IMG/VR virus record: IMGVR_UViG_2671180747_000017
DNA: 64,000 nt
Source: a virus
Lineage: Duplodnaviria > Heunggongvirae > Uroviricota > Caudoviricetes
Reading direction: 5' to 3' (one strand)
The notes under the pieces are model-generated. The model saw only the letters and a list, made by a program, of their open reading frames with translations. It searched no databases and had not been told where the DNA came from. The translations under genes were made by a program, and so were the position numbers. Positions 1,701 through 39,238 of the stretch are shown here, piece after piece (positions within the stretch are counted from its first letter, which is position 1; each line of letters opens with the position of its first letter).

Positions 1701-1711
1701 ATGGAGTCTGT

Positions 1712-10093: not shown

Positions 10094-10101
10094 CAGAAAT
10101 G

Positions 10102-10123
10102 GCCCCGTACGGAAGTGCGGGGC
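10102..10123. terminator. Stable hairpin after giant gene at convergent gene junction, no U-tract
   Basis: GCCCCGTAC-GGAA-GTGCGGGGC 9-bp stem read directly, 9 nt after stop codon. Confidence 0.3.
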
Positions 10124-10216
10124 TGATTAAGGAATAAACACACATTAACCTGTAATAACCGGAGCTATTAACATATAGTCAGAAAGAGTATTTCATGTGA
10201 GACAGAGAGCCGATTT

Positions 10217-10408
10217 ATGTTTAATGAAGAAAAAGTTGCGCAAATGGCAGCGTATTTGCTGAAAAAGCATGGCGGATCTATGCGTTTCATTAAGCTGATG
10301 AAGCTGATGTATCTCTCTGACCGCAAAGCAATGGAGTCTTTAACCGGGAAGGGGAGAGGTTTGAATGCTCCCCCACAATTCCCCGGCATCAAATCTCCAT
10401 GCAGGTGA
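10217..10408 (+). pseudogene. Possible N-terminal remnant of a Panacea (DUF4065)-like gene
   Basis: 63-aa ORF with KLMKLMYLSDRKAMESLTGK pattern recalled from Panacea-domain N-termini; ends abruptly; sits alone between convergent operons. Confidence 0.25.
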
Positions 10409-10494
10409 ACTATTTTACCCCCAGCGGCAAATCGCAAAAACAATCAGTGCGATCGAAATGGCAGCCACTACAATTGCAAATGCTTCAGGCTAGG

Positions 10495-11421
10495 TCATTG
10501 GCTTACCTCCTTCGGCGGTTCTGGTAGCGGCATCCAGTGGGTTACTTCTTTGAGATGCAGGTCTTCGCCATCACCGTCATCCCAAGTGGGATTGCCATCA
10601 TTAAACCAGTCGCCATATACGCCGACCTGAGTGTTGGGGATGCTTGGTGGGTAGTTGTTTTTAAAGTCAGCTGCTAACACATAGTATTGTCGCTCTCCCA
10701 TTTCTGGCATTCGATCACTACAGCTTATCCAACCATCCGGAGTTACCGGAACTGGCGGAACGGCTGTTTGCTCTCGAACGTCATTAGTCGCTATCGGTTC
10801 TGCTGCCAACTGACTGGCATATTTGTTAATGGTAACGATAAGCTCTTGCTCAGCCTCATCCAGACAATCACCGATACCTCGCCTGTCACCGTCAAAATCA
10901 TCGAAATCGGCACGAATCTTGGCAACCTTCTGGATTGCGGACAACACCTCACTAGGAATTACCGGATAGTTGGTTGACGTTTCCGCGATTTCCCGAAAAT
11001 TATTGGTTGACGAATTCTTGTTTTCCCGAAAGTTTCCGGACTGAAGCATGGCGGCGCGGCAGGCATTCCAGCCTCTTACCTCTGCAATAGCGGCAACCGC
11101 ATCAACCGCGTACATGCTAAGAGGATTAGGCATTGGTTTTTCTTCCGGTACTACTGGTGCTGGAGGGGCGGCGTAAATGCCCTCTATCACTAAATGTTTG
11201 CGCTCAAAATCATCTGGCTCTCGATGATATACGTAACTCCAATCACCAAGGTTATCATTGCGCCTGCAACGGAAACCTATCGGCTCGGCTTCCAGCGCTG
11301 CCAGAGCAATTCGTGCCAGTTCTTCCGCTTCTTCTGCTGGCAGTACAACGTTGCTACCAGGTCCGTATGTTTCGCGCCACTGCTTGATTGTCAGTAGTCG
11401 CTCTTTGGTAATAGTGATCAT
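10495..11421 (-). CDS. DUF551-like prophage protein
   Basis: ORF track; C-terminal YYVLA...GVYGDWFNDG...THWMPLPEPP resembles the DUF551 module common in lambdoid early-left regions. Confidence 0.65.
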   Translation of the reverse strand: MITITKERLLTIKQWRETYGPGSNVVLPAEEAEELARIALAALEAEPIGFRCRRNDNLGDWSYVYHREPDDFERKHLVIEGIYAAPPAPVVPEEKPMPNPLSMYAVDAVAAIAEVRGWNACRAAMLQSGNFRENKNSSTNNFREIAETSTNYPVIPSEVLSAIQKVAKIRADFDDFDGDRRGIGDCLDEAEQELIVTINKYASQLAAEPIATNDVREQTAVPPVPVTPDGWISCSDRMPEMGERQYYVLAADFKNNYPPSIPNTQVGVYGDWFNDGNPTWDDGDGEDLHLKEVTHWMPLPEPPKEVSQ

Positions 11422-11933
11422 GCCGCGTTTCCTTCTTTCTTATTAACAATTACACCGTCATATATTTCATTAAGGTGCCCTCTCAACTCCATGCGCCTTA
11501 ATGCAGATAACATGTAATCGCATTCAACCTGCTTATTCCCAATAAAAGGTTTATCTTCAGGGTTACCCCAACAGCAATTCCCCTTGGGCCATCCATGTAC
11601 TTTCCGTACTCTTCCGTTAACAACGTGAAGTAATCCCCAGCCAGGTGGTAAATCCTCAATTGAAATAATTCCCGGCTCACTAATAAAGAATCGCCAGTCG
11701 CCCATTCCAAGAGACGGATTTTTACGAAAACGCTTTTTTCTATCTGCCAACAAGTCAGCACGAGAACATTTCGCCTCTATCAGGCATGATGCTGAATTTC
11801 TGAATCCCATAGCATCTGGCTGTTCTCCGGTACTGGTTACAGCTATAAAGCGGTCATGAAAACAAACCTTGAACCCGTTGCGCTTAAGGAACTTGTACGC
11901 AATCTGACAGAGTTCGCGGTGTGTTAACGCCAT
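11418..11933 (-). CDS. Hypothetical prophage protein, possible PD-(D/E)xK-like nuclease motif
   Basis: ATG at 11933 with AAGGAG RBS overlapping the upstream gene's stop; motif CLIEAKCSRADL. Confidence 0.55.
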   Translation of the reverse strand: MALTHRELCQIAYKFLKRNGFKVCFHDRFIAVTSTGEQPDAMGFRNSASCLIEAKCSRADLLADRKKRFRKNPSLGMGDWRFFISEPGIISIEDLPPGWGLLHVVNGRVRKVHGWPKGNCCWGNPEDKPFIGNKQVECDYMLSALRRMELRGHLNEIYDGVIVNKKEGNAA

Positions 11934-11934
11934 A

Positions 11935-12885
11935 TCACTCTCCTTTGATGCGAATGCCAGCAAGCCAGTTTCTTATGCCGATATATTCAGCGTTCCGGAA
12001 ACCGCTTTTTACATATATAAATGGCAAGCGAAGATTGTGACCATTGACTGCCAGGTAGTCTTTACAACCCTGTTCGGTGAAACAGCAGGTAACGAATTCA
12101 TCAATATCTTTCACAGCAACGCGCCGCCATTTTTCTGGTGGCTCTCGAAAGTTTTCATGAAGTAGCTCGAGACGACGACTATGGCGTTTATTGGCTTCAT
12201 TGCCATCTTCGTCAACCCAGACAATCCGGTCATGGTCATAATCAGCATCAACAACGATTTCGCGCTTTTGATACACACAAAACATGGGATCTGACGTTAT
12301 TCGATTGTCCTGTGTTCGAATATTTTCACCGATGATGCCAAACGAATCTGGTGCAGATTTTGTCTGCATCTCTTCGATACGTTCAGCCATCGCAGCACAC
12401 TCTTCAAAGTTGCTTAATGCTTTTCGCTCCCATTCGGCGCATTGTTTTTCCAGTTCTGCTATGCGCTTACTTCCATCCGCGATTACTCCCTCGTAATATT
12501 CACGCTGCTCGTTGAGTTTTGATTTTGCTGTTTCAAGCTCAACGCGCAGCTTCCCTACCGTAAGCGCAATATCCTCGTTCTCCTGGTCGCGGCGTTTGAT
12601 GTATTGCTGGTTTCTTTCCCGTTCATCCAGCAGTGCCAGCACGGTAGCCGGATTGGCTGCGGCGATGAATTCAGCATTGGCCTGCTGTTCCATTTGGAAA
12701 TCTTCATCGAAACCGCTTTCAGGATGTGCTCCTTCAATTCTGCAAATGGGAATATATCCAGCAGCCTCGCGATGAATTAGTGCATCATCACCATCAAATC
12801 GGTTCTCTCCATATTCGAGCGACCACTCACCACGCGTTGCTTTTTCTGCCTTTTCACGCAGTACCTGATAGTTAATCTCGCTCAT
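11935..12885 (-). CDS. Ead/Ea22-like prophage protein
   Basis: Contains ANAEFIAAANPATVLALLDE, which I recognise from Ea22-like proteins; central coiled-coil; start refined to ATG 12885. Confidence 0.7.
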   Translation of the reverse strand: MSEINYQVLREKAEKATRGEWSLEYGENRFDGDDALIHREAAGYIPICRIEGAHPESGFDEDFQMEQQANAEFIAAANPATVLALLDERERNQQYIKRRDQENEDIALTVGKLRVELETAKSKLNEQREYYEGVIADGSKRIAELEKQCAEWERKALSNFEECAAMAERIEEMQTKSAPDSFGIIGENIRTQDNRITSDPMFCVYQKREIVVDADYDHDRIVWVDEDGNEANKRHSRRLELLHENFREPPEKWRRVAVKDIDEFVTCCFTEQGCKDYLAVNGHNLRLPFIYVKSGFRNAEYIGIRNWLAGIRIKGE

Positions 12886-13156
12886 TTTTCTCTTCGCTCC
12901 GGTATACAAGAATTACAACGTCACCTCTGCTAATTACGCGAGCTGGATCTCCTGGCTCCATGCTGTCAATCCCGAAGGCTTCGGAAAACGCATTCATTGC
13001 CTTCTGGCGTTGATCCTGCTTACGGCATTTATTCCATTTTTTCAGTAACAACAGCGATAGCCACCGCCCGGCGCAGAACATAATGTAAAAATAACCAAGA
13101 AGCGCCAGACCTGTGTTGAGGGCCGTATCGATCGTTATAGTGGTGTCTATGCTCAC
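12872..13156 (-). CDS. Small hydrophobic (membrane) prophage protein
   Basis: ORF track; hydrophobic segment GLALLGYFYIMFCAGRWLSLLLL; translationally coupled to neighbours. Confidence 0.5.
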   Translation of the reverse strand: MSIDTTITIDTALNTGLALLGYFYIMFCAGRWLSLLLLKKWNKCRKQDQRQKAMNAFSEAFGIDSMEPGDPARVISRGDVVILVYRSEEKNERD

Positions 13157-13374
13157 TTCACACCTCTCTGTTTGTTGATAAGTTCAATATCCTGCTGGCA
13201 ACTGGCGCAAGTTCGGCATCCGCGAACAGCCTGGCGTCGCCGCTCATCTATCGGATCGCCACACTCGCAACAATGAGTAGCAGATGGGGCATTACTTTCG
13301 GATTTGTATTTTTGCAGGGAGAGATTGCGCTGCAATTCTTCGATTTCAGCGGCATTGTCGATGATATCTGCCAT
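13153..13374 (-). CDS. TraR/DksA-family C4 zinc-finger protein
   Basis: CCECGDPIDERRRQAVRGCRTCASCQ four-Cys motif; 73 aa, typical size and position for phage TraR-like proteins. Confidence 0.8.
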   Translation of the reverse strand: MADIIDNAAEIEELQRNLSLQKYKSESNAPSATHCCECGDPIDERRRQAVRGCRTCASCQQDIELINKQRGVK

Positions 13375-13421
13375 TTTCCTTTCCTTCAGGCATGAAAAAA
13401 GGAGCCGAAGCTCCTTTGGTA

Positions 13422-14045
13422 TCAGAATTCAAATTGTCTTGCTCTTAGTTGCGCTAGCATACTTCTGGCCCTATGCACCATATAGTTGGCGGGATCAAGT
13501 TTTGCTGCTTCGCGGAGCAATGTGTCGCGAGTCCGGTTGGTTATATGACGAGTCTCGTAGGCCAGATCAAACAGTTTCCCGTAGTAATCAGAATTCAGTT
13601 CTCTCATGACGGGGTATAGCTGCTTACTGAGTTGTTGTGCTTTTTCCATCCAGAGTTGAACGTAGCAGAGCAGGATGATGTCTTCTGCTGTGAATTGCTG
13701 CTCAGTTTGTACTGGCTGAATGTTGCGAAGTTTCTTTTCGCACTCGATGAAGTATCGGCGTATCTGGCGGCCTTTTTCGTTACGTTCAACCATCGCAAGC
13801 TCTTTGGCTGTGTCGAGGGTGAGGTGGTAATCCTTGCGGCGGCGGCCTGGAGTTTTCGCCAAATTTGGCGAAAATAGAATGTAGTCTAAATTTTCTACGA
13901 ATCCATACTCGTTTAGCTTGGCCCGTATCCAGTTAGAAAAATCTTTACCTACCTCTAAAAATCCATGCAAATCACGCGCGTTCACCAGAAGCGTAGGTTC
14001 ATTTGAGATTGTACCTTCAAACACAGGGATGAGTTGAGTGGTCAT
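13422..14045 (-). CDS. Phage antirepressor, AntA-type N-terminal domain
   Basis: Start refined to ATG 14045 (MTTQLIPVF...) with GGAGG RBS; N-terminal region matches AntA/AntB-type antirepressors. Confidence 0.75.
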   Translation of the reverse strand: MTTQLIPVFEGTISNEPTLLVNARDLHGFLEVGKDFSNWIRAKLNEYGFVENLDYILFSPNLAKTPGRRRKDYHLTLDTAKELAMVERNEKGRQIRRYFIECEKKLRNIQPVQTEQQFTAEDIILLCYVQLWMEKAQQLSKQLYPVMRELNSDYYGKLFDLAYETRHITNRTRDTLLREAAKLDPANYMVHRARSMLAQLRARQFEF

Positions 14046-14294
14046 GATGACCTCCTTTGGCTTTTTTCGAGAAATGCCACCACAAAATGTGGTGCCGGGA
14101 GGCTCGAAACGGCCCAAAAGATACCGCGGACTTATTCCCCTTGCGGGTGTTGTATTCGTCGCCCTCCCGACATTGATCGGGGATGTGACCGCACACTGTG
14201 CTATCACTGAATAACAGGCATAAAAAATCCAACACTGACGGGGTTGGTTTAATCCGCTTTTGGGAGGTTTTCGAGGCCTCGGCGCGGAGTATAG

Positions 14295-14582
14295 TCAGTA
14301 TTGGACGCAGTCGTCAACCATCGCCGTTTCTTTGGCTGTGTCGAGGGTGAGGTGGTAATCCTTGCGGTTGTGACCGCCTCTACCAGATGTTTGCTTTCCC
14401 AAATTGGAAAGCAAAATATAGTCTTGATTTTCAATGAATTCGTATTCTGAAATGCGATTTGTAATCCATGCCGCAAACACCTTTTTCACGCCTAAAAAAG
14501 CATGCAGATCGCGGGCATTGCAGAGTAGGGCTGTTTCGTTGTCGATAGTGCCGTTGAATACGGGGATGAGTTGATTAGCCAT
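14295..14582 (-). pseudogene. Truncated paralog of the antirepressor (N-terminal domain only)
   Basis: MANQLIPVFNGTIDNETALL... closely parallels the 13422-14045 protein then ends at ...MVDDCVQY; flanking DNA is a partial duplicate of 13790-14290. Confidence 0.5.
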
Positions 14583-14909
14583 AATTATGACTCCTGACGT
14601 TTTAGTATTGACTGCCACCTTAGTGGGGTGGCGGGCTTCAACTACCGCGTCAGACGGCGGAGCGTATTTCCCGAAAGGGTATTGTATTAGGCTCTCTCGA
14701 CCCGCCATTGATATGGCGATACCTGTAAACAGGCATAAAAAAGCCGCAAAGCTATCGGGTGCGGTTGACCGCTGACGTTGTAGTGCAGTCAGTATGCGAT
14801 AGCTCTGGCAGATTTGTCAAATCGTGCAGTAACATCCTTTTCTTCCTTGCCATTTCTCAATGATGACAAAGGGTGGATTCGGATTGGTATTGGGACAAAA
14901 GTGAGACAC

Positions 14910-14942
14910 ACAAAGCTTTGCATCGGCTTACAAAGCTTTGCA
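14910..14942. repeat. Two direct copies of ACAAAGCTTTGCAT, each containing the palindrome AAAGCTTT, 19 bp apart
   Basis: Read directly near the prophage A / ynfG junction; operator-like or att-proximal binding sites. Confidence 0.4.
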
Positions 14943-14987
14943 TGTTTTTCAATGTTGGGACGTGTGAGCGCAGAAATGACGGGCTAT

Positions 14988-15101
14988 CTAATTGATTTTA
15001 AACGATACGTAACCAACTTTAAAATCTTTGCACGCCAGTTCGCAGGTTTTACAGCCAGTACAGCGGCTGGAATCGATAAAAAATCCATATTGTGTGGTCA
15101 T
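14988..15101 (-). pseudogene. ynfG: ynfG 5' remnant: first 28 codons (MTTQYGFFIDSSRCTGCKTCELACKDFK) fused to 9 phage-derived codons
   Basis: N-terminus matches DmsB/YnfG Fe-S subunit start; sequence diverges after KDFK at about 15018; AAGGAG RBS before ATG 15101. Confidence 0.7.
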
Positions 15102-17595: not shown

Positions 17596-18622
17596 TTATA
17601 TTTTTTCGATCTCGACCAGATTAGTGTGCTGCGGGTTTCCCTTCGCCAGTGGTGAAGGGCGCAGAGTGGTTAGCGTATTCACACAGCCGCCATGGTCGAT
17701 TTTATCGCCAGACATATTGGCCTCGTGCCAGGCTCCCTGGCCCATAGCGCTAACTCCAGGGAGAATACGTGGTGTTACTTTGGCTGGTAGCCGAACTTCG
17801 CCACGATGGTTAAACACCCGCACCATATCGCCGTTGGCAATCCCACGTTTCTGCGCATCTATAGGGTTGATCCACACCTCCTGACGGCAGGCAGCCTTCA
17901 GGAGATCAATATTGCCGTAGGTCGAGTGAGTACGGGATTTGTAATGGAAACCAAACAGTTGCAGTGGGAAGGTTCTACGTTCAGGGGAGTCCCAGCCTTC
18001 AAAGGTAGAGGCATAAACTGGCAGTGGGCTTATCACTTCATCTTTTTCCAGTTCCCAGGTACGGGCAATTTCCGCCAGCTTGCTGGAATAAATTTCAATC
18101 TTACCGGAAGGTGTTTTAAGTGGATTTGCCTCGGGGTCGTCACGAAATGCTTTGTAGGCGACAAAATGACCATTGGGATCTTTACGCTTATAGATACCCA
18201 TTTTTTTCAGTTCGTCGTAAGACGGTAACGCCGGATCTTTGGCAAGCATTTTGGCGTACAGATGTTGTAACCATTGTTCCTGCGTGCGACCTTCAGTGAA
18301 CTTTTGATAGACGTCAGGTCCAAGACGTTTCGCGACTTCACTCAGGATCCAGTAAATCGGTTTGCGTTCGAATTTTTCGCTGGTGACAGGCTGGAGGAAA
18401 ATGAGATATCCCATGTTACCGGCGTAGTCGTTAGGAATAATATCTTCCTGCTCAACGGTCATCAGGTCTGGCAGCAGAATGTCGGCATATTTTGCCGATG
18501 AGGTCATAAAGTTTTCGATGACCACAATCATTTCGCATTTCGATTCGTCCTGCAGAATTTCATGCGTTTTGTTGATGTCAGAATGCTGATTAACGAGGGT
18601 ATTTCCCGCGTAGTTCCAGATG
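17596..18622 (-). pseudogene. ynfE: ynfE C-terminal fragment (distal part of the disrupted gene)
   Basis: Paralogous to ynfF C-terminal half; the ynfE-derived reading frame begins at the junction (...SIWNYAGNTL) and the track ORF N-terminus is island-derived. Confidence 0.85.
18612..18622. repeat. attL core direct repeat AGTTCCAGATG
   Basis: Identical 11-mer at both ynfE breakpoints. Confidence 0.8.
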
Positions 18623-18687
18623 GACTCCATTGTCAGACGGATGGATGGACTTGAAGTAGTTGACTCAATGCTACTTAAGGTCCTGAT

Positions 18688-20271
18688 ATGACTGACATTA
18701 ACCATGATAATACTGTATATCCATCCAGTTCTTTCTCTGGGTCTCCCTATCTGTATCAGCAAGTCTGCACCTCAAGTCCTGACACAAGGCTGACACAAAT
18801 CAATCTACTCAGCGTAGCTAAGCCTCAGTTAGTCCGTAGAGCCAATGGTCGATATACTATCCGCTTCAGACTCAAGGGACAGACCATCCCGTTTCTTTCA
18901 GTATCGACCCGAAGCACAGACAGGAGAGTAGCCACAATGCGTCAGAGAGAGCTTGCAGCCACAGCTAAGTCCTTCATGTTGGATAGGCCTGATGTCTCGC
19001 TACAGGAGCTTACGGACCACCTCCGGTCTATGGCTGAGCAGTTCCTGACAGACGCCAGTGATGACTACTGGAATGGACTTGAGGTCGCTACTCTGGTGGA
19101 CGAGAAGTCCAACCTGAAGGAGCTAGCCGCTACGCAAGCCTTGAGTCTGGACCAGCAGAAGGGCATAAGGTTAGCGCTTGAAGTCCTGACCGCAGCACAG
19201 CAGAGGGTAGACACTGGTGATGCCTCTGGTCTGATTAAGCTGATTGATGATAATAACCATACTGATTACTCAACTATAGGCGACTCTACGTCAATTCTGA
19301 AGAATGAGCAGGGGGATAGACCAGCAGTTTTCACACAGGAGCGTCAGCCATCTGTGGTTTTTTCAAGCCTAGTGTCCTCGCTGCTGGCTGAGAAGGTCCA
19401 GACCCTGAAGTCCTCCAGCTACAAGGACCTGTCGTCCTCACTGAATACCGTCTCTCGGTTCTTACCTGAAGACATGGACCTGATGTCCCGCTCTGAGTGG
19501 CTGGCTGTCAGGGACTCCATGCTGGCTGCTGAGGTGAGACCATCGACAATCAACAAGCTGCTGACTAAGGCGAAGATGTGTCTTGATTATGGCCTGATGA
19601 ATGGGCAACTTGAGGGCCGCAACCCTATTGAACGGATGAAGCTGACCAAGGATATCGACTCCAAGCGCAGAGCGTTCACAGACGAGGAGCTGGAGAGACT
19701 TCTGGTCCGTGTTGAGTCTGAGTATCAGTTCACACGACACACGGCTCACACGACCTCTGAGGCCCGTAGATGGGCGTCTCTGGTGTCTGTGGTCACTGGC
19801 GCGAGGTCTGCTGAAGTCTGCCACCTGACTAAACGTGACATTGTCACCTTAGACAACGGTTTAACCTGCATCGACATCAATGAAGATGGGGACGGTAAGT
19901 CTGTGAAGAACAAACATTCAGTCCGACTTGTACCGCTGACCGATGGGGCCTGTGGGTTCGACCTGAAGTCCTTCCTTGAATGGGTAGACACGCAGCCTGA
20001 CGACGGCGGTCCTCTCTTCGGGATGACTCCGAGCGCCTACTCTAGCTGGTTTAACTCTAGGGTCCTGACTGAGGCACTGGGAGACGCTGAGAACGTTTCT
20101 CTCCATAGTCTGAGGCATTGGCTGGCGACCCGAATGAAAGAGCGTGGAGTCAATCTGGTGGACGCTCAGGGCATCTTAGGCCATAGCAGTCAGTCAATTA
20201 CGTATGACCTGTACGGGAAAGGACACGCTGTTGGTAGGCTGGCTGAGGTGCTGAAGACAGCTTTACTTTAA
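18688..20271 (+). CDS. int: Tyrosine recombinase / integrase of the island
   Basis: C-terminal HSLRHWLATR and LGHSSQSITYDLYGKGH (H-x-x-R and catalytic Tyr); N-terminal GRYTIRFRLKG arm-binding-like segment; true start uncertain because arm-type repeats lie at 18780-18798. Confidence 0.85.
   Translation: MTDINHDNTVYPSSSFSGSPYLYQQVCTSSPDTRLTQINLLSVAKPQLVRRANGRYTIRFRLKGQTIPFLSVSTRSTDRRVATMRQRELAATAKSFMLDRPDVSLQELTDHLRSMAEQFLTDASDDYWNGLEVATLVDEKSNLKELAATQALSLDQQKGIRLALEVLTAAQQRVDTGDASGLIKLIDDNNHTDYSTIGDSTSILKNEQGDRPAVFTQERQPSVVFSSLVSSLLAEKVQTLKSSSYKDLSSSLNTVSRFLPEDMDLMSRSEWLAVRDSMLAAEVRPSTINKLLTKAKMCLDYGLMNGQLEGRNPIERMKLTKDIDSKRRAFTDEELERLLVRVESEYQFTRHTAHTTSEARRWASLVSVVTGARSAEVCHLTKRDIVTLDNGLTCIDINEDGDGKSVKNKHSVRLVPLTDGACGFDLKSFLEWVDTQPDDGGPLFGMTPSAYSSWFNSRVLTEALGDAENVSLHSLRHWLATRMKERGVNLVDAQGILGHSSQSITYDLYGKGHAVGRLAEVLKTALL
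18780..18798. repeat. Two direct TGACACAA arm-type repeats, 11-bp spacing, left end of island
   Basis: TGACACAAGGCTGACACAA read directly; same motif triplicated at the right end. Confidence 0.7.
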
Positions 20272-20348
20272 GTAGGAAGACCCAAGGTGGAGACCATATA
20301 CGGCTTGATGGTTGAGACCTTGGGTCACTGAAGTCTGACTGAAGTTAG

Positions 20349-20376
20349 GGAGGGTGATAATAATCATAATCCCTCC
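20349..20376 (+). terminator. Hairpin downstream of integrase (GGAGGG, 16-nt loop, CCCTCC), no clear U-tract
   Basis: Read directly about 80 bp after the int stop. Confidence 0.25.
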
Positions 20377-20483
20377 TGACTATAGGCCCACTGGTTCGCC
20401 TTCGGCTGTCAGACTCTAAGTCTGTATGTGGTCTTATTTAAACTGGTTCCCTAACTCCAGTACTCCAAATTCCTATGGTCTCC

Positions 20484-20690
20484 TCTTGACATTCCTGTTT
20501 AACTGTGAGTCGCCTCTGGTCTCTCTTTATATATACTTCCTTAATTCCTGAGGCGTCTTTAGTCCTTGACATCCAGTCCAGCCTGTGAGTCACATCCGGT
20601 CCTCCCTCTTTATATATACTTCCTTAATTCCTAGGGTCGCCTTAATCCTTGACATCCAGTCCAGCCTGTGAGTCACATCCTGTCGCGCTA
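20484..20690. repeat. Three tandem direct repeats, period about 80-83 bp, each with TTGACAT...CTGTGAGTC; the first two also carry CTCTTTATATATACTTCCTTAATTCCT
   Basis: TTGACA at 20486, 20566, 20649; CTGTGAGTC at 20503, 20583, 20666; 27-mer at 20523 and 20606. Confidence 0.75.
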
Positions 20691-20713
20691 CTGTATGCAT
20701 CACCAGTGATGGA

Positions 20714-20736
20714 CTTGATTATCACTATAGGGGAAC
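20714..20736 (+). promoter_or_regulatory. T7-group phage RNA polymerase promoter-like site, copy 1 (predicted +1 G at 20730)
   Basis: TCACTATAGGG matches T7 consensus positions -8 to +3 exactly; upstream specificity region (ATTA) differs from T7/T3/K11/SP6; 35 bp upstream of an ORF with AGGAG RBS. Confidence 0.6.
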
Positions 20737-20764
20737 CAACTAATTCAACTACAGGAGATACTCT

Positions 20765-21133
20765 ATGGCACGACCAATCGCAACTCACGACAACACGTTC
20801 ACCAAAGCCTACTTGCAGCAGCACTGCGGGGACCTGCTGTCATTCGATGGTCAGGGCGACCTGAGTGGTTGGCTGGATGATGTCCTTACTGGTGCTGGTC
20901 GCCTGAACGAATCAATGGCAAGCAATACCAAGCCTGTCAGCCCATACTTGATTCTGACCCAACTACTAACGCACGACACATTAACTGTAAGCGCTGTACA
21001 GGAGTCCCTGAGCCGTAAGCGTGTTGCCTTGGGTGAACCTATGGTTTCAACTCGCTACGCTCGCTACGTCTATGCTACCGTCGTCAGCGCCAGTAAATCC
21101 GTCCAGTACCACGCCAGTAAAGCTGGTTCATGA
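20765..21133 (+). CDS. 122-aa protein, first gene downstream of phage-type promoter 1, unknown function
   Basis: ORF track; ACAGGAGATACTCT-ATG gives an AGGAG RBS at good spacing. Confidence 0.65.
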   Translation: MARPIATHDNTFTKAYLQQHCGDLLSFDGQGDLSGWLDDVLTGAGRLNESMASNTKPVSPYLILTQLLTHDTLTVSAVQESLSRKRVALGEPMVSTRYARYVYATVVSASKSVQYHASKAGS

Positions 21134-21142
21134 TTACGGACC

Positions 21143-21165
21143 CTAAACTATCACTATAGGGAGAC
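21143..21165 (+). promoter_or_regulatory. T7-group phage RNA polymerase promoter-like site, copy 2 (predicted +1 G at 21159)
   Basis: TCACTATAGGGAGA matches T7 consensus positions -8 to +6 (14/14); shares TATCACTATAGGG with copy 1; same strand. Confidence 0.65.
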
Positions 21166-21422
21166 CAGCCTCCGCCTCTGAGTCTGATGCGTCAGAACAT
21201 GCGAGCATCTGGTCAACCGACATTAAGTATCTCTCCTAAGTAATCAAGGCATGTGACCGCCTCTGTCAGACCTCGTGTATCGACCTCCAGCTCGTTAGCG
21301 TTCTCGTGTCTTCATTATGATTTGGGTCTATCACCGCTCACCATCTGGAAGTCCTTACAGCTCGTCCTGACATGCGGTCTCACCTTTATATGGCTGGAAG
21401 AGACCTCCTCTGTCAGACGCTA

Positions 21423-21470
21423 TCTAACCAACCCAGAAAACGGGTTTGTTAAAAAGATTAACATGGGTCT
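21423..21470. repeat. Direct repeat copy 1, about 47 bp (TCTAACCAACCCAGAAAACGGGTTTGTTAAAAAGATTAACATGGGTCT)
   Basis: Near-identical second copy at 21619-21665; contains short hairpin AACCC-AGAAAAC-GGGTT. Confidence 0.7.
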
Positions 21471-21490
21471 CCACCTTCATGAGGACCGCT

Positions 21491-21504
21491 CCGGAAATTT
21501 CCGG
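21491..21504. repeat. 14-bp perfect palindrome CCGGAAATTTCCGG between the two 47-bp repeats
   Basis: Read directly. Confidence 0.7.
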
Positions 21505-21618
21505 ACCGTGAACGGGTGGCTCTATCACAGGTCGCGAAAATGGAAACCTGCTTAACGTCCCCAAAACTGAGCAGTCACCATTCTTAACGGGTCCAAATTT
21601 GGGCGCGTTGGCGAGAAG

Positions 21619-21665
21619 TCTAACCAACCCAGAAAACGGGTTTGTTAAAAAAGTTAACATGGTCT
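21619..21665. repeat. Direct repeat copy 2, about 47 bp
   Basis: About 45 of 48 positions identical to copy 1; 196 bp spacing. Confidence 0.7.
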
Positions 21666-21793
21666 TCACACGACCTCATTACCTCAAGTCTTTCTGTATG
21701 TCTCCTGTTGCCTGTGAGTCTCCCTATCGTTGGGGGCTTGAGTAGGCTTTCAGGGTGTGACTTCAGGAGGCATAACAAAAGGAGTACAACGAT

Positions 21794-22552
21794 ATGTCAA
21801 CTCAACCCTTAATGAAGCATGAAGTAGTTCTTCCTGTCATCGTTGACGGCTATCACTGGGCCTGTAATCAGGACCGTATGTGGAACCTGAACGAGCTACA
21901 TAAAGAGCTTGAGCTTCCATCTGCTAAGGAGCCGGGTCAGTGGCGTTCTAGCGTCAGGACGCTTCTTGACCAAGATGCAAATCTGCATGTTGCTCATGGT
22001 GGTTCGACTCCGGGGACATGGGCTACTGAAGAGGCGGCTATTGCCTATGCGATGTGGGTCTCACCTGATTTCTACCTTAAGGTCATCCGTGCTTTCATCG
22101 CTTTACGTAACGACAAAGTGTCGGAAGCTAAGGCGCTGGCGCAGGACTCCAAGGAACTTAAGGGTCTCAAGCCTATAGCCCGTAACTGGCTGGAAAAGCT
22201 GGATAACCCGAAGCAGGGCCACACCCTGACAGAGTGTCTTAAGAATCTCGACTTCAGGTTAGGTACAAAGCTGGTATCAGCCAAGGCTCTTAATGCCGTA
22301 TTGAAGTCAGGGCGTATAGCTAATCCCTTCTATAGTCGCAAGCTGGACGGTCGAGGACAGCCTGTATTTGACATCTCGTCAGGTGGCTGGATGACCAGCT
22401 TCAATCCTAAGGGTCTGGAGAACGGCTATTACCGTCTTCAGGATAACCACTATAACGGTCAGGAGGGGCTTAAGGTCCTCACCAAGGGTTACGAGTGGCT
22501 TAAGTCCAACAAGGTCGAGCTGGTTCGTCTGTGCGCTAAGGGAGGACTCTAA
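21794..22552 (+). CDS. KilA-N domain protein (DNA-binding), 252 aa
   Basis: AAGGAG RBS; N-terminal ...LHVAHGGSTPGTWATEEAAIAYAMWVSPDFYLKV resembles KilA-N/APSES-type domain. Confidence 0.7.
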   Translation: MSTQPLMKHEVVLPVIVDGYHWACNQDRMWNLNELHKELELPSAKEPGQWRSSVRTLLDQDANLHVAHGGSTPGTWATEEAAIAYAMWVSPDFYLKVIRAFIALRNDKVSEAKALAQDSKELKGLKPIARNWLEKLDNPKQGHTLTECLKNLDFRLGTKLVSAKALNAVLKSGRIANPFYSRKLDGRGQPVFDISSGGWMTSFNPKGLENGYYRLQDNHYNGQEGLKVLTKGYEWLKSNKVELVRLCAKGGL

Positions 22553-22553
22553 G

Positions 22554-22721
22554 ATGATTGACCCGCGCACACCTGAGGGCCGCATGACTCTCCGTTACCG
22601 TGGCTACCGGACTGAAGTCCTCCTCAGAGAGCTTGGTCTAGACCCGGAAGATGAGACCCGCCAGCACCAATCCCGAGACGAGCTGATAGCGCAACTGGTC
22701 GCTATGAAACTGTCTGCCTAA
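22554..22721 (+). CDS. Small 55-aa protein, not in ORF track
   Basis: ATG immediately after the upstream stop (TAAGATG coupling); MIDPRTPEGRMTLRYRGYRTEVLLRELGLDPEDE...; read by eye. Confidence 0.4.
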   Translation: MIDPRTPEGRMTLRYRGYRTEVLLRELGLDPEDETRQHQSRDELIAQLVAMKLSA

Positions 22722-22817
22722 TTTTAAAACCTTTTGAGATGACCGATGCGGGGAGACCCGTAGGCGCTACTGCGTCTGCGATACCGATAGTCTCAACTCT
22801 CAAGAGGAGAATTACCT

Positions 22818-23309
22818 ATGATGTTCAACAACAACAACTGGAAGCTGTCAGTCACCGACATCAACCTTTATGAAAACACTGTGAGTCTGGACGGTCAGTC
22901 CTATCCGTTGTCGCTCGCTATCAAGACCCTGATTCCGGGCTACCTGTCAGGACTGCCGTCTACCAGCCGTGAGTCTATGGAGTTACTGGAAGCTCTGGCT
23001 GAAGCTGGTGTAGCTATTGGCAACTTCTTCAGTAATGACCTGATGACCGCCTATGGTCGCCGCCAGCAGAACAAGCGAGCTGAGGCTGAGCGTATCGCTA
23101 AAGAGCAGCGCATTCAGGCCGAGCGCATGCGTGAAGAGAACATGACTGATGCAGAGTGGCAGAAAGAGCTACAGCGCCGCGAACAGGTCAAAGCTGAACG
23201 CCGGACCTATGGTGAGAACCTCCGCAGTGCTACCCATTCCGCTGGTCGCTCCCGTGCCGCTATTGTCGCTGACCTTGAGTCAGGCGGTAACTGGCTGGAC
23301 AGCTTATAA
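22818..23309 (+). CDS. 163-aa protein with basic coiled-coil C-terminal half, unknown function
   Basis: ORF track; GAGGAG RBS; Arg/Glu/Gln-rich heptad-like segment AEAERIAKEQRIQAERMREE. Confidence 0.6.
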   Translation: MMFNNNNWKLSVTDINLYENTVSLDGQSYPLSLAIKTLIPGYLSGLPSTSRESMELLEALAEAGVAIGNFFSNDLMTAYGRRQQNKRAEAERIAKEQRIQAERMREENMTDAEWQKELQRREQVKAERRTYGENLRSATHSAGRSRAAIVADLESGGNWLDSL

Positions 23310-23393
23310 GACACACAGTCCCTGACCCGATGTTAGGGACTCCTCAGTTTTGAGGACTCACAGTATTTAAACTAATTTAGGAGATTGATTATT

Positions 23394-24380
23394 ATGACGA
23401 TTAAAGACGCTTTCCAGTTTGGCATTGAGCCAGTACGCATCACCGATACCGACAACATTCAGGTCAATGAAGGTCTGCCGACTAACGCTGACCCGCAGGT
23501 CTACGCCCTCCAGTTAGCTAAGACGGTTAAGGCTATGCTGAACGGTGTACTTAAGGACGCTCAAGAGAACATCCCGTTCCCTGTAGAAGTCCTGCCGACC
23601 CGTAACAGCTTACCGACCCCAATCATTGCCCACACTCTGACTGACCGCTCTGTGGTCGTTCCTGTCCGTGGTGGCAAGCGACCTGAAGTCGTGACCGTTC
23701 CGTCTGGACAAGAAATCGTGGTCGAACCAATCGAGCAGGCTATTCTCATCTCTGAGCAGACCAAGCTCTGGGACGCCAAGTCATCCACCGGATTCACTCA
23801 GGGCACACTTCAGCAGGACGCTATGAACATCTGTGAGAATGTGGTCCGTACCATCAACGCTCGCATGGTCGACGTTCTGGAATCCTCTAAGCTGCTGAAG
23901 ACCGTAGAGCTTCCTGTCCTGACTGGTAGCCTGACCGCTAAGGCAGACGCTATCATGGACGCTCTGTATGAGAACACAGAGTCTTCTTTCGGTTCTGAGG
24001 TGTCTGACTACGGTATTATCGCTCATGAGAGCCAACTGAAAGCACTGTCCCGTCTGGCTGCTAAGCAAGGCTTCTCCGGTGAAGACGCTATCGTCGATAT
24101 GCTGGGAACAGACATCGCCTACTACAACGGTGAAGACAAGGGTGTATTCATGCTGGCTAAACGCTTCACGGCTCTGAGCTTCGGTTGCTTCCGTCACGAT
24201 GGCGAGAATATTACGGTCGTCCTTTCACGTGATGGCGACTCTCAGTCCCACGACTTGGAAATCCTCGGTAAAGTGTTCGTTGTCGCTGAAGCTGCTACGA
24301 CCATCAAGATGGGCACTGGCTCAGCTACTGCCGTCCTGCCTGTAGTCAAACGCCTGAAGTTCACCAAGACCGAAGCGTAA
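23394..24380 (+). CDS. 328-aa protein, unknown function (largest island cargo gene)
   Basis: ATG 23394 with TAGGAG RBS (track start 23385 is TTG); no motif I can assign. Confidence 0.65.
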   Translation: MTIKDAFQFGIEPVRITDTDNIQVNEGLPTNADPQVYALQLAKTVKAMLNGVLKDAQENIPFPVEVLPTRNSLPTPIIAHTLTDRSVVVPVRGGKRPEVVTVPSGQEIVVEPIEQAILISEQTKLWDAKSSTGFTQGTLQQDAMNICENVVRTINARMVDVLESSKLLKTVELPVLTGSLTAKADAIMDALYENTESSFGSEVSDYGIIAHESQLKALSRLAAKQGFSGEDAIVDMLGTDIAYYNGEDKGVFMLAKRFTALSFGCFRHDGENITVVLSRDGDSQSHDLEILGKVFVVAEAATTIKMGTGSATAVLPVVKRLKFTKTEA

Positions 24381-24385
24381 GACCA

Positions 24386-24625
24386 ATGGGTAAGAGCATT
24401 AGTAAAGGCTTCAGGTCCATCGCCAAGGGCCTGACAGGTGGTGGTGGGACTCAAGGTGGGGCTTCGGTCCCGCCTCCTGTAGCTCCTCCTGTAGCTCCTC
24501 CAGATGACGCTCAGCAAGCTGTAGTCGATACCCAAGGTCAGGAGACCGAGGGAGGTAAGACCATGAGCAGAGGTAAGTCTGGACTGAATATCAGCAGGAC
24601 TTCAGGTGGTGGCCTGTCACTGTGA
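24386..24625 (+). CDS. 79-aa Gly/Pro-rich basic protein
   Basis: ORF track; GGGGTQGGASVPPPVAPPVAPP low-complexity; follows 328-aa gene by 5 nt. Confidence 0.45.
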   Translation: MGKSISKGFRSIAKGLTGGGGTQGGASVPPPVAPPVAPPDDAQQAVVDTQGQETEGGKTMSRGKSGLNISRTSGGGLSL

Positions 24626-24863
24626 TTAAGACATCTATACAGCCTGTGGAGGGTGGACGATATCAAGCAACAATCTGGATGACACGCAGAGTCTATAAGC
24701 GGCTATGCTGGTCACTGGCTGAAGCTGAACAGTGGGTGAGACGTAAAGTGCCTACCGTTCAATCGTTCCAATCATCATGATAACTATGGTCTGGACCAAT
24801 GGTCTGGACCTTTGTTTTGTACTAGTTATCTAGTGCAGTAGTACAATAGACGAAGGAGGCTTT

Positions 24864-25019
24864 ATGTCTATGACTTCCGCAGACCTAAGGTCCCTCCTGA
24901 CTCTGGTCTATAAACTCGTGTTCCTCTCTGTGGGTCTCTATATGGTCCTCTCCGGTCGACTCGGTGTGAATGTATTCGACACTCTGTCTAAGGCTGTGGG
25001 TGGGCTTCTGGGGGCTTAG
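24864..25019 (+). CDS. 51-aa hydrophobic membrane peptide
   Basis: Strongest RBS in the island (GAAGGAGG, 6 nt before ATG); one predicted TM helix LLTLVYKLVFLSVGLYMVLSG; read by eye, not in ORF track. Confidence 0.5.
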   Translation: MSMTSADLRSLLTLVYKLVFLSVGLYMVLSGRLGVNVFDTLSKAVGGLLGA

Positions 25020-25169
25020 GTTTGGACTCACAGTGGGACCGATGGTTTCTGACAGAAAAATGTGAATGACCATCTAATACATTAAGCCAGCAGACTTCCC
25101 CCATAGCCCGCCTCAAGTCCAGACCGAGGCCACCGGGGGGCTGACCAGCCGTCTAGACATCCCGTCTAA

Positions 25170-25200
25170 TGACACAAGGCTGACACAAAGCCTGACACAA
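25170..25200. repeat. Three direct TGACACAA arm-type repeats (11-12 bp spacing), right end of island
   Basis: TGACACAAGGCTGACACAAAGCCTGACACAA read directly. Confidence 0.7.
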
Positions 25201-25257
25201 AGTCCTTGACTCAATGCAGGACCTCAGGCCTACTAAGGGTCCGCTTCAAGTCCTTGA

Positions 25258-25268
25258 AGTTCCAGATG
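25258..25268. repeat. attR core direct repeat AGTTCCAGATG
   Basis: Identical to 18612-18622. Confidence 0.8.
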
Positions 25269-32028: not shown

Positions 32029-33309
32029 TTAATTTTTCATTGATTCGTTATGGGGCATGGTTGGGGCAAACTCGCTTAACTGTGTATTTAACAAAGCTAC
32101 CTGTGCATTATTGTTTTCAGACATCCATTTTCCGTATACCTGAAATACCATTTGCGCATCTGCATGGCCCATCTGGTTTGCTATAAATGCCGGGTTAGCA
32201 CCAGCTGTCAGCGACCAGCAGGCATAAGTATGTCTCGACTGATATGATTTTCGATGGCGGAGTCCGGCACGTTTTATCGCTGCGTCCCACATCTGCCTTA
32301 TTGAGTCAACGGTAAAATGGTCACCATAATTTTTTACTCTCGCTGACACTTCAGGTTGAAAAACAAAGGTGCATTTTTGTTTTTCTGTTCTGCCATACTC
32401 TCTGAGGTGAACATCAATGATATGCTCTTTGCTCAGTCTCGTTAATGTCATCTGACTCCGGAGAGCGTCGATTGCTGGCTTAATAAGATGAATGGCCCGA
32501 TTGGTTCCCGCCTGTGTTTTTGGTACCGTGAAACGGTCTTTTGCTAAATTTCTCCTGATCATCATTGTTCCATTTTTCAGATCTATGTCCTCCCATCCAA
32601 GTGCACACAGCTCACCAGGGCGAACGCCAGTATAAACAGAAACACACCATAAATTTTTTGCTTGCTGATTTCTGCACGCATCGATAAGACGGATAAATTC
32701 CTCCCGCGAAAGAGGATCCGGAATGGTTCTTGATTCCTTTAATGGCGAGATCCCCTTAAACGGATTATCTGCCAGGTAACCGTTATCAACACCAAACTGG
32801 AACACGGCGTTAAGATTTGTCATGTAATTATTTACAGTTACAGCCGATCTCCCTGGTTGTGTAACAATATAGTTACTTTTGGGGATCTGGTATCCAGTCA
32901 GTAGCTCTTTACGAACCTCCAGTAATTTTTCTTTATTAATCGATGAGGCAAGATTTTTTTCACCGATTATGCTCAGGATATTTTTGATGACGGCACGGTA
33001 TGTGTTGAGTGATGTTTTGGCGACTTCAGTTTCTTTCAGTGCCAGAAATTTTTCAGCCAGTTCTTTTATGGTTAAATCTTGTCGGGCCTCACCAAATTTT
33101 TCCAGATTGCGTGAGGAGGGAAACTGTTTTGCATAGTCGAAAACACCAGTTTTTATTGCGTAACAAACAGAGGAGCGTAGTTCACCTGCAACGCGCCTGT
33201 TTTTTGCTGTGTCAGGAACCCCCAGATTTTCCCTGACTCTTACGCCTTTATAAACAAACCAGATACGTAATTTCCCTCCATGGTTTTCCACGCCTGTCGG
33301 ATATTTCAT
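32029..33309 (-). CDS. int: Prophage integrase (lambda Int family tyrosine recombinase)
   Basis: N-terminal arm-binding-like MKYPTGVENHGGKLRIWFVYKG; C-terminal SRHTYACW and VYGKW catalytic motifs. Confidence 0.9.
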   Translation of the reverse strand: MKYPTGVENHGGKLRIWFVYKGVRVRENLGVPDTAKNRRVAGELRSSVCYAIKTGVFDYAKQFPSSRNLEKFGEARQDLTIKELAEKFLALKETEVAKTSLNTYRAVIKNILSIIGEKNLASSINKEKLLEVRKELLTGYQIPKSNYIVTQPGRSAVTVNNYMTNLNAVFQFGVDNGYLADNPFKGISPLKESRTIPDPLSREEFIRLIDACRNQQAKNLWCVSVYTGVRPGELCALGWEDIDLKNGTMMIRRNLAKDRFTVPKTQAGTNRAIHLIKPAIDALRSQMTLTRLSKEHIIDVHLREYGRTEKQKCTFVFQPEVSARVKNYGDHFTVDSIRQMWDAAIKRAGLRHRKSYQSRHTYACWSLTAGANPAFIANQMGHADAQMVFQVYGKWMSENNNAQVALLNTQLSEFAPTMPHNESMKN

Positions 33310-33343
33310 TTCAACTTCTCTCATTAGTTAGTGTGGCTTTTAG

Positions 33344-38733: not shown

Positions 38734-39238
38734 ACAGGCTCGTGAGGCTCTGGATGCCTGGATATGTCGACCAGGAATGACACAGGAGCAGGCGACGATA
38801 TTAATCACTGAAGCATTCTGGGCTTTGAAAGAGCGCCCGAACATCGATGTTCAGCGTGTCACAGATGAAGGTGGCGCGGTTGATCAGCGAGCGCTTGGCG
38901 TTAATCGAGTGAAGATATTCGAACGCTGGAAGGCTATCGACACCAGGGATAAGCGTGAAAAGTTCACGGCGCTAGTGCCTGCAATTATGGAGGCTATCCG
39001 GATTAATGATTTCAGGTTGTATCGTGAAATTAGTGACGGAAAAAGCATCACGTACATGATCGCCGGGTTAAACAAAGAATATGGCGATGTGGTGGAGTCC
39101 GGACTGCTTTTTGCTGATCCTGCCGTAGTGGATCGTGAAACTGACGAACTTATAGAAAAAGCAATTGCTTTCAAACTTGCGTATCGACAGCAATACCAAC
39201 AAAAAGCTGGATGGAATTATGAGCCTTCTTTTTGCTGA
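38717..39238 (+). CDS. YdaT-like prophage protein
   Basis: ORF track; position after the Cro-like gene as in Rac (racR-ydaS-ydaT). Confidence 0.6.
   Translation: MKITPEQAREALDAWICRPGMTQEQATILITEAFWALKERPNIDVQRVTDEGGAVDQRALGVNRVKIFERWKAIDTRDKREKFTALVPAIMEAIRINDFRLYREISDGKSITYMIAGLNKEYGDVVESGLLFADPAVVDRETDELIEKAIAFKLAYRQQYQQKAGWNYEPSFC

Follow-up and report, generated by a model that had tools for sequence, protein, structure and literature searches.

What has split ynfE in the 64,000-nucleotide stretch of the virus record IMGVR_UViG_2671180747_000017 (IMG/VR; "the window" below means this whole stretch), and on which phage, if any, could the inserted DNA depend? The gene is interrupted by an island of 6646 bp that possesses its own tyrosine integrase, and BLAST of this island against 50,697 phage records singled out ~40-kb Escherichia phages of the genus Kayfunavirus (Autographiviridae, Studiervirinae). 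We read the insert as an integrative satellite of a virulent T7-like phage of the Kayfunavirus type and as the representative of a new family of very small satellites; on the sequence comparisons described below, we give this reading a probability of roughly two thirds. The fully annotated Kayfunavirus phage Pisces (MK903277) served as the helper reference.

Insertion of the island in ynfE

The features on which the insertion is recognised are:

18612-18622, no strand: attL core, AGTTCCAGATG, within ynfE (repeat pair, ynfE restoration, empty site)
25258-25268, no strand: attR core, second copy of AGTTCCAGATG (repeat pair, ynfE restoration, empty site)
18780-18799, + strand: arm-type repeat TGACACAAGGCTGACACAAA, left copy (20/20 to 25170-25189; 16/20 to 97-116 of the Pisces direct terminal repeat, DTR)
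18688-20271, + strand: tyrosine integrase, 527 aa (Pfam Phage_integrase, PF00589, 1.8e-13; phrog_1, 3.3e-42)

A preliminary description of this DNA had proposed that the insert is bounded by an exact 11-bp direct repeat, that its removal restores ynfE, and that it carries an integrase, arm-type repeats at both ends and about eight small co-directional genes; all of this is borne out. The repeat AGTTCCAGATG occurs exactly twice in the window (shuffle mean 0.06; 0 of 100 shuffles reach two or more copies). Deletion of 18623-25268 in silico yields one uninterrupted 808-aa open reading frame (ORF) on the minus strand, and its product is the A subunit of a dimethyl sulfoxide (DMSO)/selenate reductase. 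The corresponding 300-nt empty site, with 150 nt from each side, is found contiguous and at 100% identity in annotated ynfE elsewhere, and at a coverage of at least 80% the empty ynfE site is present in 5114 of 5426 complete E. coli genomes. The arm-type repeat TGACACAAGGCTGACACAAA is identical at all 20 positions in its two copies, and eight further ORFs lie on the integrase strand. The island is integrated site-specifically in ynfE and encodes the tyrosine integrase itself.

The choice of the site is not limited to ynfE. The same AGTTCCAGATG core serves as the site in another gene of the DMSO reductase family (two metagenome contigs), and a near-identical core, TAGTTCAGATTGAACT, is used in a different gene of this family by one island variant; the integrase thus targets a conserved coding motif common to these paralogues. 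In some island variants, the att direct repeat is 13 bp long (GTAGTTCCAGATG).

Full-length matches of the integrase among phages are confined to five records, all of ~40-kb Pseudomonas phages (32-34% identity over 89-91% of the length; best E value 2e-55). The one inspected, vB_PsyP_3MF5 (34% identity over 91%, E 2e-55), is a T7-like phage of ~41 kb (Studiervirinae, Warsawvirus), with the large terminase gene on one side of the integrase gene and the right terminal repeat on the other. In its ancestry, the island integrase therefore appears closest to those of integrase-bearing T7-like phages.

Promoters and end sequences resembling those of T7-like phages

The following sequence features of the island match or resemble parts of the Pisces genome:

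20710-20735, + strand: promoter-like site P1 (…GATTATCACTATAGGGGAA), upstream of orf122 (20710-20732 match Pisces 38896-38918 at 21 of 23 positions)
21143-21167, + strand: promoter P2 (CTAAACTATCACTATAGGGAGACCA), 5' of the main gene block (25/25 to Pisces 21457-21481, E 2.3e-7)
20349-20376, + strand: 28-nt element GGAGGGTGATAATAATCATAATCCCTCC, non-coding (28/28 to Pisces 39030-39057, E 3.7e-9)
18728-18778, + strand: left-end segment resembling the right boundary of the helper terminal repeat and overlapping the first int codons (Pisces 172-223)
25030-25194, + strand: right-end segment resembling the helper right end and the left part of its terminal repeat (Pisces 39455-39497 plus 1-121)

Two sites on the gene strand had been noted earlier as matching the core of promoters used by the single-subunit RNA polymerases of the T7 group. 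The match is stronger than was claimed, as P2 is a 25/25 copy of a Kayfunavirus late promoter. A search of the window for TCACTATAGGGRRA finds TCACTATAGGGGAA at 20722 and TCACTATAGGGAGA at 21151 and, even if two mismatches are allowed, no other site; the four ACTATAGG octamers of the window all lie within the island on the gene strand (0.68 expected; 0 of 100 shuffles reach four). Two of these octamers, at 19273 (within int) and 20379, were rejected as promoters: the bases upstream of them depart from the helper consensus, and the one at 20379 is not conserved in the island variants. The Pisces counterpart of P1 lies just downstream of terL, in the position of T7 phiOR, and that of P2 directly upstream of the major capsid gene, in the position of T7 phi10. 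In Pisces, eight ACTATAG-containing sites carry (A/T)AACTATCACTATAG. Each of the eight is on the coding strand and occupies a position typical of T7 promoters; the promoters of Pisces share the consensus cTAAACTATCACTATAGG, and P2 fits it. As in Autographiviridae genomes, the island promoters carry the consensus of a phage RNA polymerase and are located on the coding strand upstream of genes. P1 is conserved in the island variants and P2 is found in every one of them, and both have been kept while the island capsid protein diverged to ~72% identity. Sites resembling sigma-70 promoters are not in excess in the island (6 versus 5.1 ± 2.3 expected). Every computational test run agrees with the earlier suggestion that the element is keyed to a T7-like phage through these promoters.

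A sister island, found in the ynfE region of another enterobacterial genome and encoding a capsid protein 42% identical to that of the present one, does not possess the Kayfunavirus promoter type and carries TTTAAGGAAGGTACACTATAGGGAGAGACAC in its place. This sequence is identical at 31 of 31 positions to the annotated promoter directly upstream of gene 10 in the Citrobacter phage CR8 (Caroctavirus), and a second copy matches at 35 of 36. The 11 annotated promoters of CR8 share TAAGGAAGGTACACT(A/G)TAGG and differ from the Kayfunavirus type at about -8 to -12, the stretch that sets polymerase specificity in T7-group promoters. Exact copies of the capsid-gene promoters of two genera are what would be expected of an element read by the polymerase of its helper, and neither chance nor the decay of a relic readily explains such covariation.

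All positions of the 28-nt element agree with a non-coding Pisces sequence that lies ~450 nt from the right genome end, in the interval from the large terminase gene to gene 19.5; compared with phage phiYIO1-1, the identity extends to 32 of 32 positions. It is present in 154 phage records (at least 90% identity over ~28 nt), almost all of them T7-like and ~39-40 kb long, shows no more than one change in any of five island variants, and folds as a modest bulged hairpin. A packaging-recognition signal and an RNA-processing signal are both candidate functions.

For the comparison of the ends, the right end of the island was joined to its left end as after excision and aligned with the Pisces concatemer junction, represented by the right end, the 190-bp terminal repeat and the sequence following it. 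The left segment aligns with Pisces 172-223, thus spanning the DTR boundary at 190, with a score of 52, and the collinear alignment of the right segment scores 41 (shuffles 19.4 ± 2.1, maximum 27, in both cases; z ~15 and ~10, respectively). BLAST of the right-end segment matches only phages of T7-like size (~40 kb). Both island ends have significant similarity, in collinear order, to the Kayfunavirus junction, the look-alike in the island being split by att.

Several short motifs mark this correspondence. GTCTCCCTATCTGTAT (18741-18756) occupies the same left-end place in all variants examined (including those from Rouxiella and E. coli O26), is found also at the repeat edge of two Kayfunavirus junctions, and resembles the class II pause/terminator signal of the T7 concatemer junction, whose seven-base motif we take to be ATCTGTT. 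A conserved motif of seven bases has been described for this signal (preprint 10.64898/2026.02.12.705533). On the right side, …GACCA/TCTAATACAT…CCCCCATAGCCCGCCTCAAGTCCAGACC… of the island parallels …CCA/TCTCACAGT…CCCCCATAGCCCTCTTCAAGTCCAGACC… of the phage, and CCCCCATAGCCC(G/T)C(C/T)TCAAGTCCAGACC is common to the island variants and to a second Kayfunavirus junction; the end motifs of the island can be given as CTATCTGTAT and GACCA/TCTAATAC. From this alignment, the equivalent of the phage terminus would lie at ~25072/25073 (GACCA/TCTAATACAT), and the equivalent of the terminal repeat would comprise ~330 bp, running from ~25073 through attP to ~18756. Since it spans attP, it would be complete only in the excised or concatemeric form.

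Other non-coding features of the island are:

20279-20326, + strand: strong hairpin just after int (inverted repeat; fold -25.9 kcal/mol, z = -4.2; conserved in variants)
20520-20684, + strand: 83-bp tandem duplication in the spacer between int and orf122 (89% identity)
21168-21793, + strand: non-coding leader after P2, ~620 nt (no conserved ORF; 44-nt direct repeats at 21423-21466 and 21619-21662)
24788-24819, + strand: terminator-like hairpin followed by a T-run (RNA fold z = -3.6)

The hairpin behind int is a possible terminator or RNA-processing site. In the leader, the 5' ~100 nt and the 3' ~110 nt are conserved across variants, including the one from Rouxiella and whichever regulator gene follows, while the middle is variable; each of its 44-nt repeats contains two small hairpins. 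The leader is a candidate for a replication origin or for a processed leader. An Rfam scan of the island, including these repeats, gave no match, and the number of terminator-like sites in the island is not above chance. The 83-bp repeat was considered as an iteron array and rejected: four other variants have a single unit, and the duplication is therefore private to this copy rather than a feature of the family.

Gene content and distribution of the island

Besides the integrase, the island encodes the following proteins:

23385-24380, + strand: orf331, HK97-fold major capsid protein (structure prediction; mechanical start TTG at 23385)
24386-24625, + strand: orf79, homologue of the virion/adsorption protein gp7.3, 79 aa (phrog_1320, 1.8e-11)
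22818-23309, + strand: orf163, highly charged helical protein (directly 5' of the capsid gene in all variants)
20765-21133, + strand: orf122, variable slot, occupied by a DUF4145 protein in other island lineages (phrog_23123, 1.1e-8)
21794-22552, + strand: KilA-N domain DNA-binding protein, variable regulator slot (Pfam KilA-N, 1.3e-9; phrog_129, 1.5e-17)
22554-22721, + strand: orf55, small protein (ORF only; no family match)
24622-24780, + strand: orf52, small basic protein (ORF overlapping the orf79 stop codon; no matches)
24864-25019, + strand: orf51, small hydrophobic protein, last gene before the right end (ORF)

As the preliminary description stated, no terminase, portal or replication initiator is present; these, as well as DNA polymerase, RNA polymerase, primase and tail genes, found no match in four profile libraries (Pfam, PHROGs, NCBIfam and PADLOC). 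The accompanying view that the island contains no structural genes had to be corrected, as orf331 is an HK97-fold capsid protein and orf79 a homologue of T7 gp7.3.

The HK97 fold of orf331, a fold defined by A and P domains, spine helix and E-loop, was detected only via structure prediction. The prediction from 14 close homologues was unusable (predicted local distance difference test, pLDDT, 48), and a usable structure was obtained only after an exhaustive profile search had added distant relatives to the alignment. The best structural matches are HK97 proteins of small shells, i.e., the T=3 particle of P. furiosus and encapsulins. The family is not detected by Pfam, PHROGs or NCBIfam, the orf331 profile found no match among PDB sequences, and hhalign revealed no relation to the helper capsid protein; the sequence is unrelated to those of T7-like capsid proteins. 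The true start is likely ATG at 23394 (MTIKDAF…), since full-length homologues of 323-330 aa and the alignment consensus begin with M-x-TIKDAF. An encapsulin nanocompartment was considered and rejected: the neighbours of orf331 are orf163, which has no enzyme domain, and the gp7.3 homologue, and the genes belong to a mobile element with phage promoters.

The assignment of orf79 was made by a PHROG profile and by direct comparison with Pisces proteins, among which the gp7.3-like protein is 34% identical over the full length (E 6e-12); the match to Pfam VirionAssem_T7 is weak. Tblastn of orf331 and orf79 against the 50,697 phage records gave no match. For orf163, profile matches are weak (T7_gp14, 0.013; phrog_13808, 0.002) and BLASTP showed no similarity to the helper scaffold; its position and composition suggest that it may be a scaffold or assembly factor. 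Orf55 is a candidate for an excision or directionality factor. Orf51 corresponds in position to the hydrophobic 52-aa gp19.5 of the helper, with which it has no sequence similarity, and homologues of orf122 are found in diverse virulent phages.

Note that annotation of this module is inconsistent. Proteins of the orf331 family are annotated as "hypothetical" or, wrongly, as "peptidase M16"; in some RefSeq genomes of E. coli, PGAP places the label "peptidase M16 family protein" within the capsid module, and in others "hypothetical protein". To judge from length and position, the gene so labelled is probably the island capsid gene, and the one named "DUF6971 family protein" in one record is probably the orf163 homologue. 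The capsid gene of the window is 100% identical to a copy in the IMG/VR record IMGVR_UViG_2698536640_000010.

The module of orf163, capsid and gp7.3-like genes can be found in 310 of the 5426 complete E. coli genomes (~6%), always on the chromosome, with 77-100% DNA identity and at several loci. Carriers include enterohaemorrhagic E. coli strains of serogroups O26 and O111; in O26:H11 and related strains, the module adjoins the ETT2/GH15 region. Close relatives are present at other sites and in Shigella, Citrobacter koseri and Rouxiella. The order of genes is constant: int, a variable gene (orf122 or DUF4145), a promoter, the long leader, a variable DNA-binding protein (KilA-N or, in sister islands, Rha, AP2 or others), a small ORF, orf163, the capsid protein, the gp7.3-like protein and small ORFs. 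Despite the swapped cargo genes, the size of the island unit is 6452-6782 bp in seven variants, and the promoters and the 28-nt element are retained across the variants of the Kayfunavirus type.

Many island copies are broken by insertion sequences of the IS66, IS3 or IS4 families, pointing to inactivation of a part of the 310 copies. A third lineage (enterobacterial genome GCA_052218625.1, positions 4900-11500 of the locus taken from it) has the same architecture and a capsid protein 33% identical to orf331. It carries three copies of TAAACCCCGACTATAGAGAG on the gene strand, which look like a third promoter type of the T7 group; no phage bearing TAAACCCCGACTATAGAGAG was present in the phage collections searched.

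Proposed life cycle, rival explanations and related elements

In an uninfected cell, the island would probably be transcriptionally quiet. An infecting helper would make its single-subunit RNA polymerase, which would fire P1 and P2 and lead to production of orf122, the KilA-N regulator, orf55, the scaffold-like orf163, the capsid protein, the gp7.3 homologue and the two small proteins. Since the island copies the promoter of the helper polymerase, no repressor would need to be inactivated. The integrase would excise the island, perhaps together with a small directionality factor, and the joining of attR to attL would rebuild the look-alike of the helper terminal repeat and concatemer junction (~330 bp) with attP inside. 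Copying would probably proceed in the manner of T7, primed from the phage promoters and carried out by the DNA polymerase and helicase-primase of the helper; this is the simplest account, as the island possesses no replication gene. The helper terminase may then recognise the mimicked signals and package the island (the Pac signal of T7 has two parts, PacB for recognition by gp18 and PacC for cutting by gp19; PMC9860248), either into small capsids built from the island capsid protein on the helper portal or into a full-size head that would hold about six copies joined head to tail. A helper tail with the island variant of gp7.3 would deliver the DNA, and the integrase would insert it at AGTTCCAGATG in a gene of the DMSO reductase family. 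Interference with helper yield appears likely.

Several observations weigh against a satellite of a Kayfunavirus-type phage, or against parts of this scheme. Induction, excision, replication and encapsidation are predicted from the sequence. The predicted attP junction, CAAGTCCTTG(A/T)AGTTCCAGATGGACTCCA, was found neither in IMG/VR nor in the metagenome contig collection. Island-length Logan/metagenome contigs were considered as free copies and rejected, as they contain ynfE host flanks and have no terminal overlap; because of these flanks, they represent integrated copies whose assembly breaks at att. Furthermore, int is located upstream of P1 and P2, so that these promoters do not account for its timely expression before the T7-type breakdown of host DNA. 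The 28-nt element could be an RNA-processing site instead of a packaging signal, and orf163 is a putative scaffold on account of its position and composition. Finally, the similarity of the sister-island ends to the CR8 ends is not significant (score 25 versus 20.7 ± 2.1), so that the terminal-repeat look-alike may be ancestral to the family rather than tuned to each helper.

The preliminary description left open whether the element is a satellite or an infection-triggered cassette. The first part of this alternative is now favoured by the capsid protein, the gp7.3 homologue, the 28-nt element and the mimicry of the ends, and the second has become less likely. A defence or abortive cassette would have its promoters fired by the phage RNA polymerase, and its products (a capsid-protein decoy, the gp7.3 variant, the KilA-N/Rha/AP2 regulators or, in sister islands, DUF4145) would poison helper assembly or kill the cell, with the element spreading by other means. 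The promoter logic would be identical, the two variable cargo slots (orf122/DUF4145 and KilA-N/Rha/AP2) are reminiscent of the defence hotspots of satellites, a weak PADLOC candidate match exists for KilA-N (PDC-S22, 5.9e-7), and the excised form was not found in IMG/VR or in metagenome contigs. We nevertheless regard such a cassette as unlikely: PADLOC recognised no defence system in the island, and a cassette would need neither look-alikes of the helper ends flanking attP, nor a helper-identical 28-nt element, nor a size held within 5% across variants. The occurrence of the family at several att sites and in several genera implies, moreover, efficient horizontal transfer, and the two explanations overlap, as satellites commonly do both. 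A different question is how a satellite would be packaged. It is possible, if doubtful, that the island travels as a concatemer of about six units in normal helper heads and that the capsid-like protein serves for interference or size redirection, like SaPIbov5 Ccm. Six units of 6452-6782 bp amount to 38.7-40.7 kb and helper genomes to ~39-40.5 kb, and neither a portal nor a protease of its own is detected in the island by Pfam or PHROGs. Packaging as concatemers is also described for PICMI (PMC10803314) and for marine VEIMEs (PMC9618062), with T7 plasmid transduction cited likewise. Each unit, however, contains a full junction look-alike, and cutting there would produce monomers; small-shell proteins as the best structural matches of orf331 and a scaffold-like gene directly 5' of the capsid gene, as in a self-contained head module, also speak for small capsids.

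That the island is a decayed remnant of an integrated (temperate) T7-like phage, with promoters, ends, integrase and gp7.3 gene as non-functional leftovers, seems very unlikely to us. Integrase-bearing T7-like phages do exist, with int beside the terminal repeat, and provide the closest full-length phage matches of the integrase, and the ends of the CR8-type lineage look ancestral rather than helper-tuned. Against decay stand the constrained size of the island and the recurrence of its compact layout with intact ORFs, at 77-100% DNA identity and at a number of att sites, in other genera as well as in 310 E. coli genomes. In addition, its capsid protein is unrelated in sequence to those of T7-like phages, and the exact promoter copies (25/25 and 31/31) of two extant virulent genera imply ongoing selection and promoter replacement, not decay. 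Least probable is a satellite or cargo of the flanking lambdoid prophages, which is suggested by the prophage genes at 1-15 kb and 32-64 kb of the window: no lambdoid cis signals, repressor, AlpA-type regulator or terS was found in the island (Pfam, PHROGs), all its specific matches are to ~40-kb T7-like phages, and it occurs also in genomes and at sites that do not have these prophage neighbours.

If the island is a satellite of a T7-like phage, how does it relate to described elements? In possessing its own integration system and lacking the gene set for autonomous replication and virion formation, it corresponds to satellites in general. The comparison with PLE and ICP1 made in the preliminary description is apt as an analogy, since both elements would be silent until a virulent helper arrives, but it does not extend to gene content, as the marker genes of PLE, PICI, P4 and PICMI are absent. 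In its activation logic, the island would be closest to PLE, a chromosomal island with an integrase that stays silent until a specific virulent phage infects and that uses the helper machinery. However, no homologues of RepA, TcaP and NixI were found in the island (Pfam, PHROGs), and the host of PLE is Vibrio and its helper ICP1, whereas the island resides in E. coli. PLE is furthermore ~18 kb long and remodels the coat protein of its helper; the island has 6.6 kb, its own HK97-fold protein and what appears to be a switch of promoter identity.

By size, PICMI from Vibrionaceae (PMC10803314) are closest: they comprise ~6 kb, depend on virulent helpers, have a reduced gene content and possibly are packaged as concatemers. 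PICMI are reported to encode no capsid-remodelling genes, whereas the island has a capsid protein and a gp7.3 homologue. Primase, terS, AlpA and Fis-type genes were not detected in the island, and the helper belongs to another family, so that it cannot be assigned to PICMI. PICI of Gram-negative bacteria differ by their size (~10-15 kb versus 6.6 kb) and by AlpA, primase/rep and terS, for which the island gave no matches, and P4-like elements by psu, delta, sid, the alpha primase-helicase, epsilon and cnr, all undetected in the island by Pfam and PHROGs. Capsid-forming PICI (cf-PICI, e.g., EcCI2) encode a complete head and packaging module, with only the tails being supplied by the helper (bioRxiv 10.1101/2022.09.08.507074); in contrast, the island has a capsid protein and a possible scaffold but no portal, protease, connector or terminase. 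These cf-PICI and SaPIbov5 Ccm are closest to the island with regard to the HK97-fold protein. Ccm, however, is homologous to the helper capsid protein, while the island protein has no sequence relation to that of its helper, and the regulatory and packaging genes of SaPI are absent from the island.

Integrase-bearing T7-like phages such as vB_PsyP_3MF5 share with the island the location of int beside a terminal repeat, the promoters for a phage RNA polymerase and direct terminal repeats. They are complete phages, though (~41 kb, with RNA polymerase, DNA polymerase, portal, tail and terminase), and the island has about one sixth of this length and none of these genes. It is not an Autographiviridae genome; common to both are cis elements, gp7.3 and an integrase of the type found in T7-like phages. 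A further parallel is provided by plasmids with a T7 origin and concatemer junction: according to Chung and Hinkle 1990 (cited in PMC9860248), these two elements suffice for replication and packaging by an infecting T7. Natural counterparts of the two seem to be present in the island; these plasmids, in contrast, are artificial and have neither an integrase nor structural genes.

No satellite of T7-like phages is described in the full texts searched, a body of literature that most subscription journals fall outside. The chances seem to us evenly balanced that the islands form an undescribed satellite family living on virulent T7-like phages, being the smallest known mobile elements that encode an HK97-fold capsid protein (~6.6 kb), with promoters swapped according to helper genus and a junction look-alike split by att. 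Few phages have been studied and used as much as the T7-like ones (therapy, display, expression systems), and a satellite for them would fill a gap in the catalogue. If the reading as a satellite is true, an island present in ~6% of E. coli genomes would bear on the outcome of phage therapy and on measurements of host range, and it would represent a new route of gene transfer; the helper-specific promoter swap could serve as a predictor of helper-satellite pairs from sequence only. HK97-fold "mini genomes" of 5-11.6 kb have been called an unexplained "twilight zone" whose lifestyle is open (bioRxiv 10.1101/2025.06.18.659913). The island falls within this zone, below the smallest known tailed-phage genome, and offers a test system in culturable E. 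coli.

One deposited sequence, PQ520054.1 ("UNVERIFIED: Enterococcus phage IME_EF3", 7785 bp), was considered as a packaged satellite and rejected. It is a mislabelled Kayfunavirus fragment across the genome junction, running through the terL end, gp19.5, the terminal repeat, and the kinase and RNA polymerase genes, the RNA polymerase being 98% identical to that of Pisces.

The surroundings of the island in the window include:

1673-10093: "large polyvalent protein" of 2806 aa (LPD38, LPD5, LPD1 and MuF_C domains)
32029-33324, - strand: prophage integrase with arm-binding domain
51731-53833: prophage large terminase, lambda gpA-type
60669-63764: prophage tape measure protein, lambda-type

Downstream of ynfF, the DNA (1-15016) is phage-derived instead of containing the usual ynfG-ynfH-dmsD, and holds also DUF551, Ead/Ea22 and AntA antirepressor genes. 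Similarity to UMNK88 ends ~95 bp past the ynfF stop codon; the ynf operon is thus bordered by a rearrangement or by another mobile element. The region 32029-64000 is a lambdoid prophage at a Qin-type position after rspAB, with no detectable link to the island.

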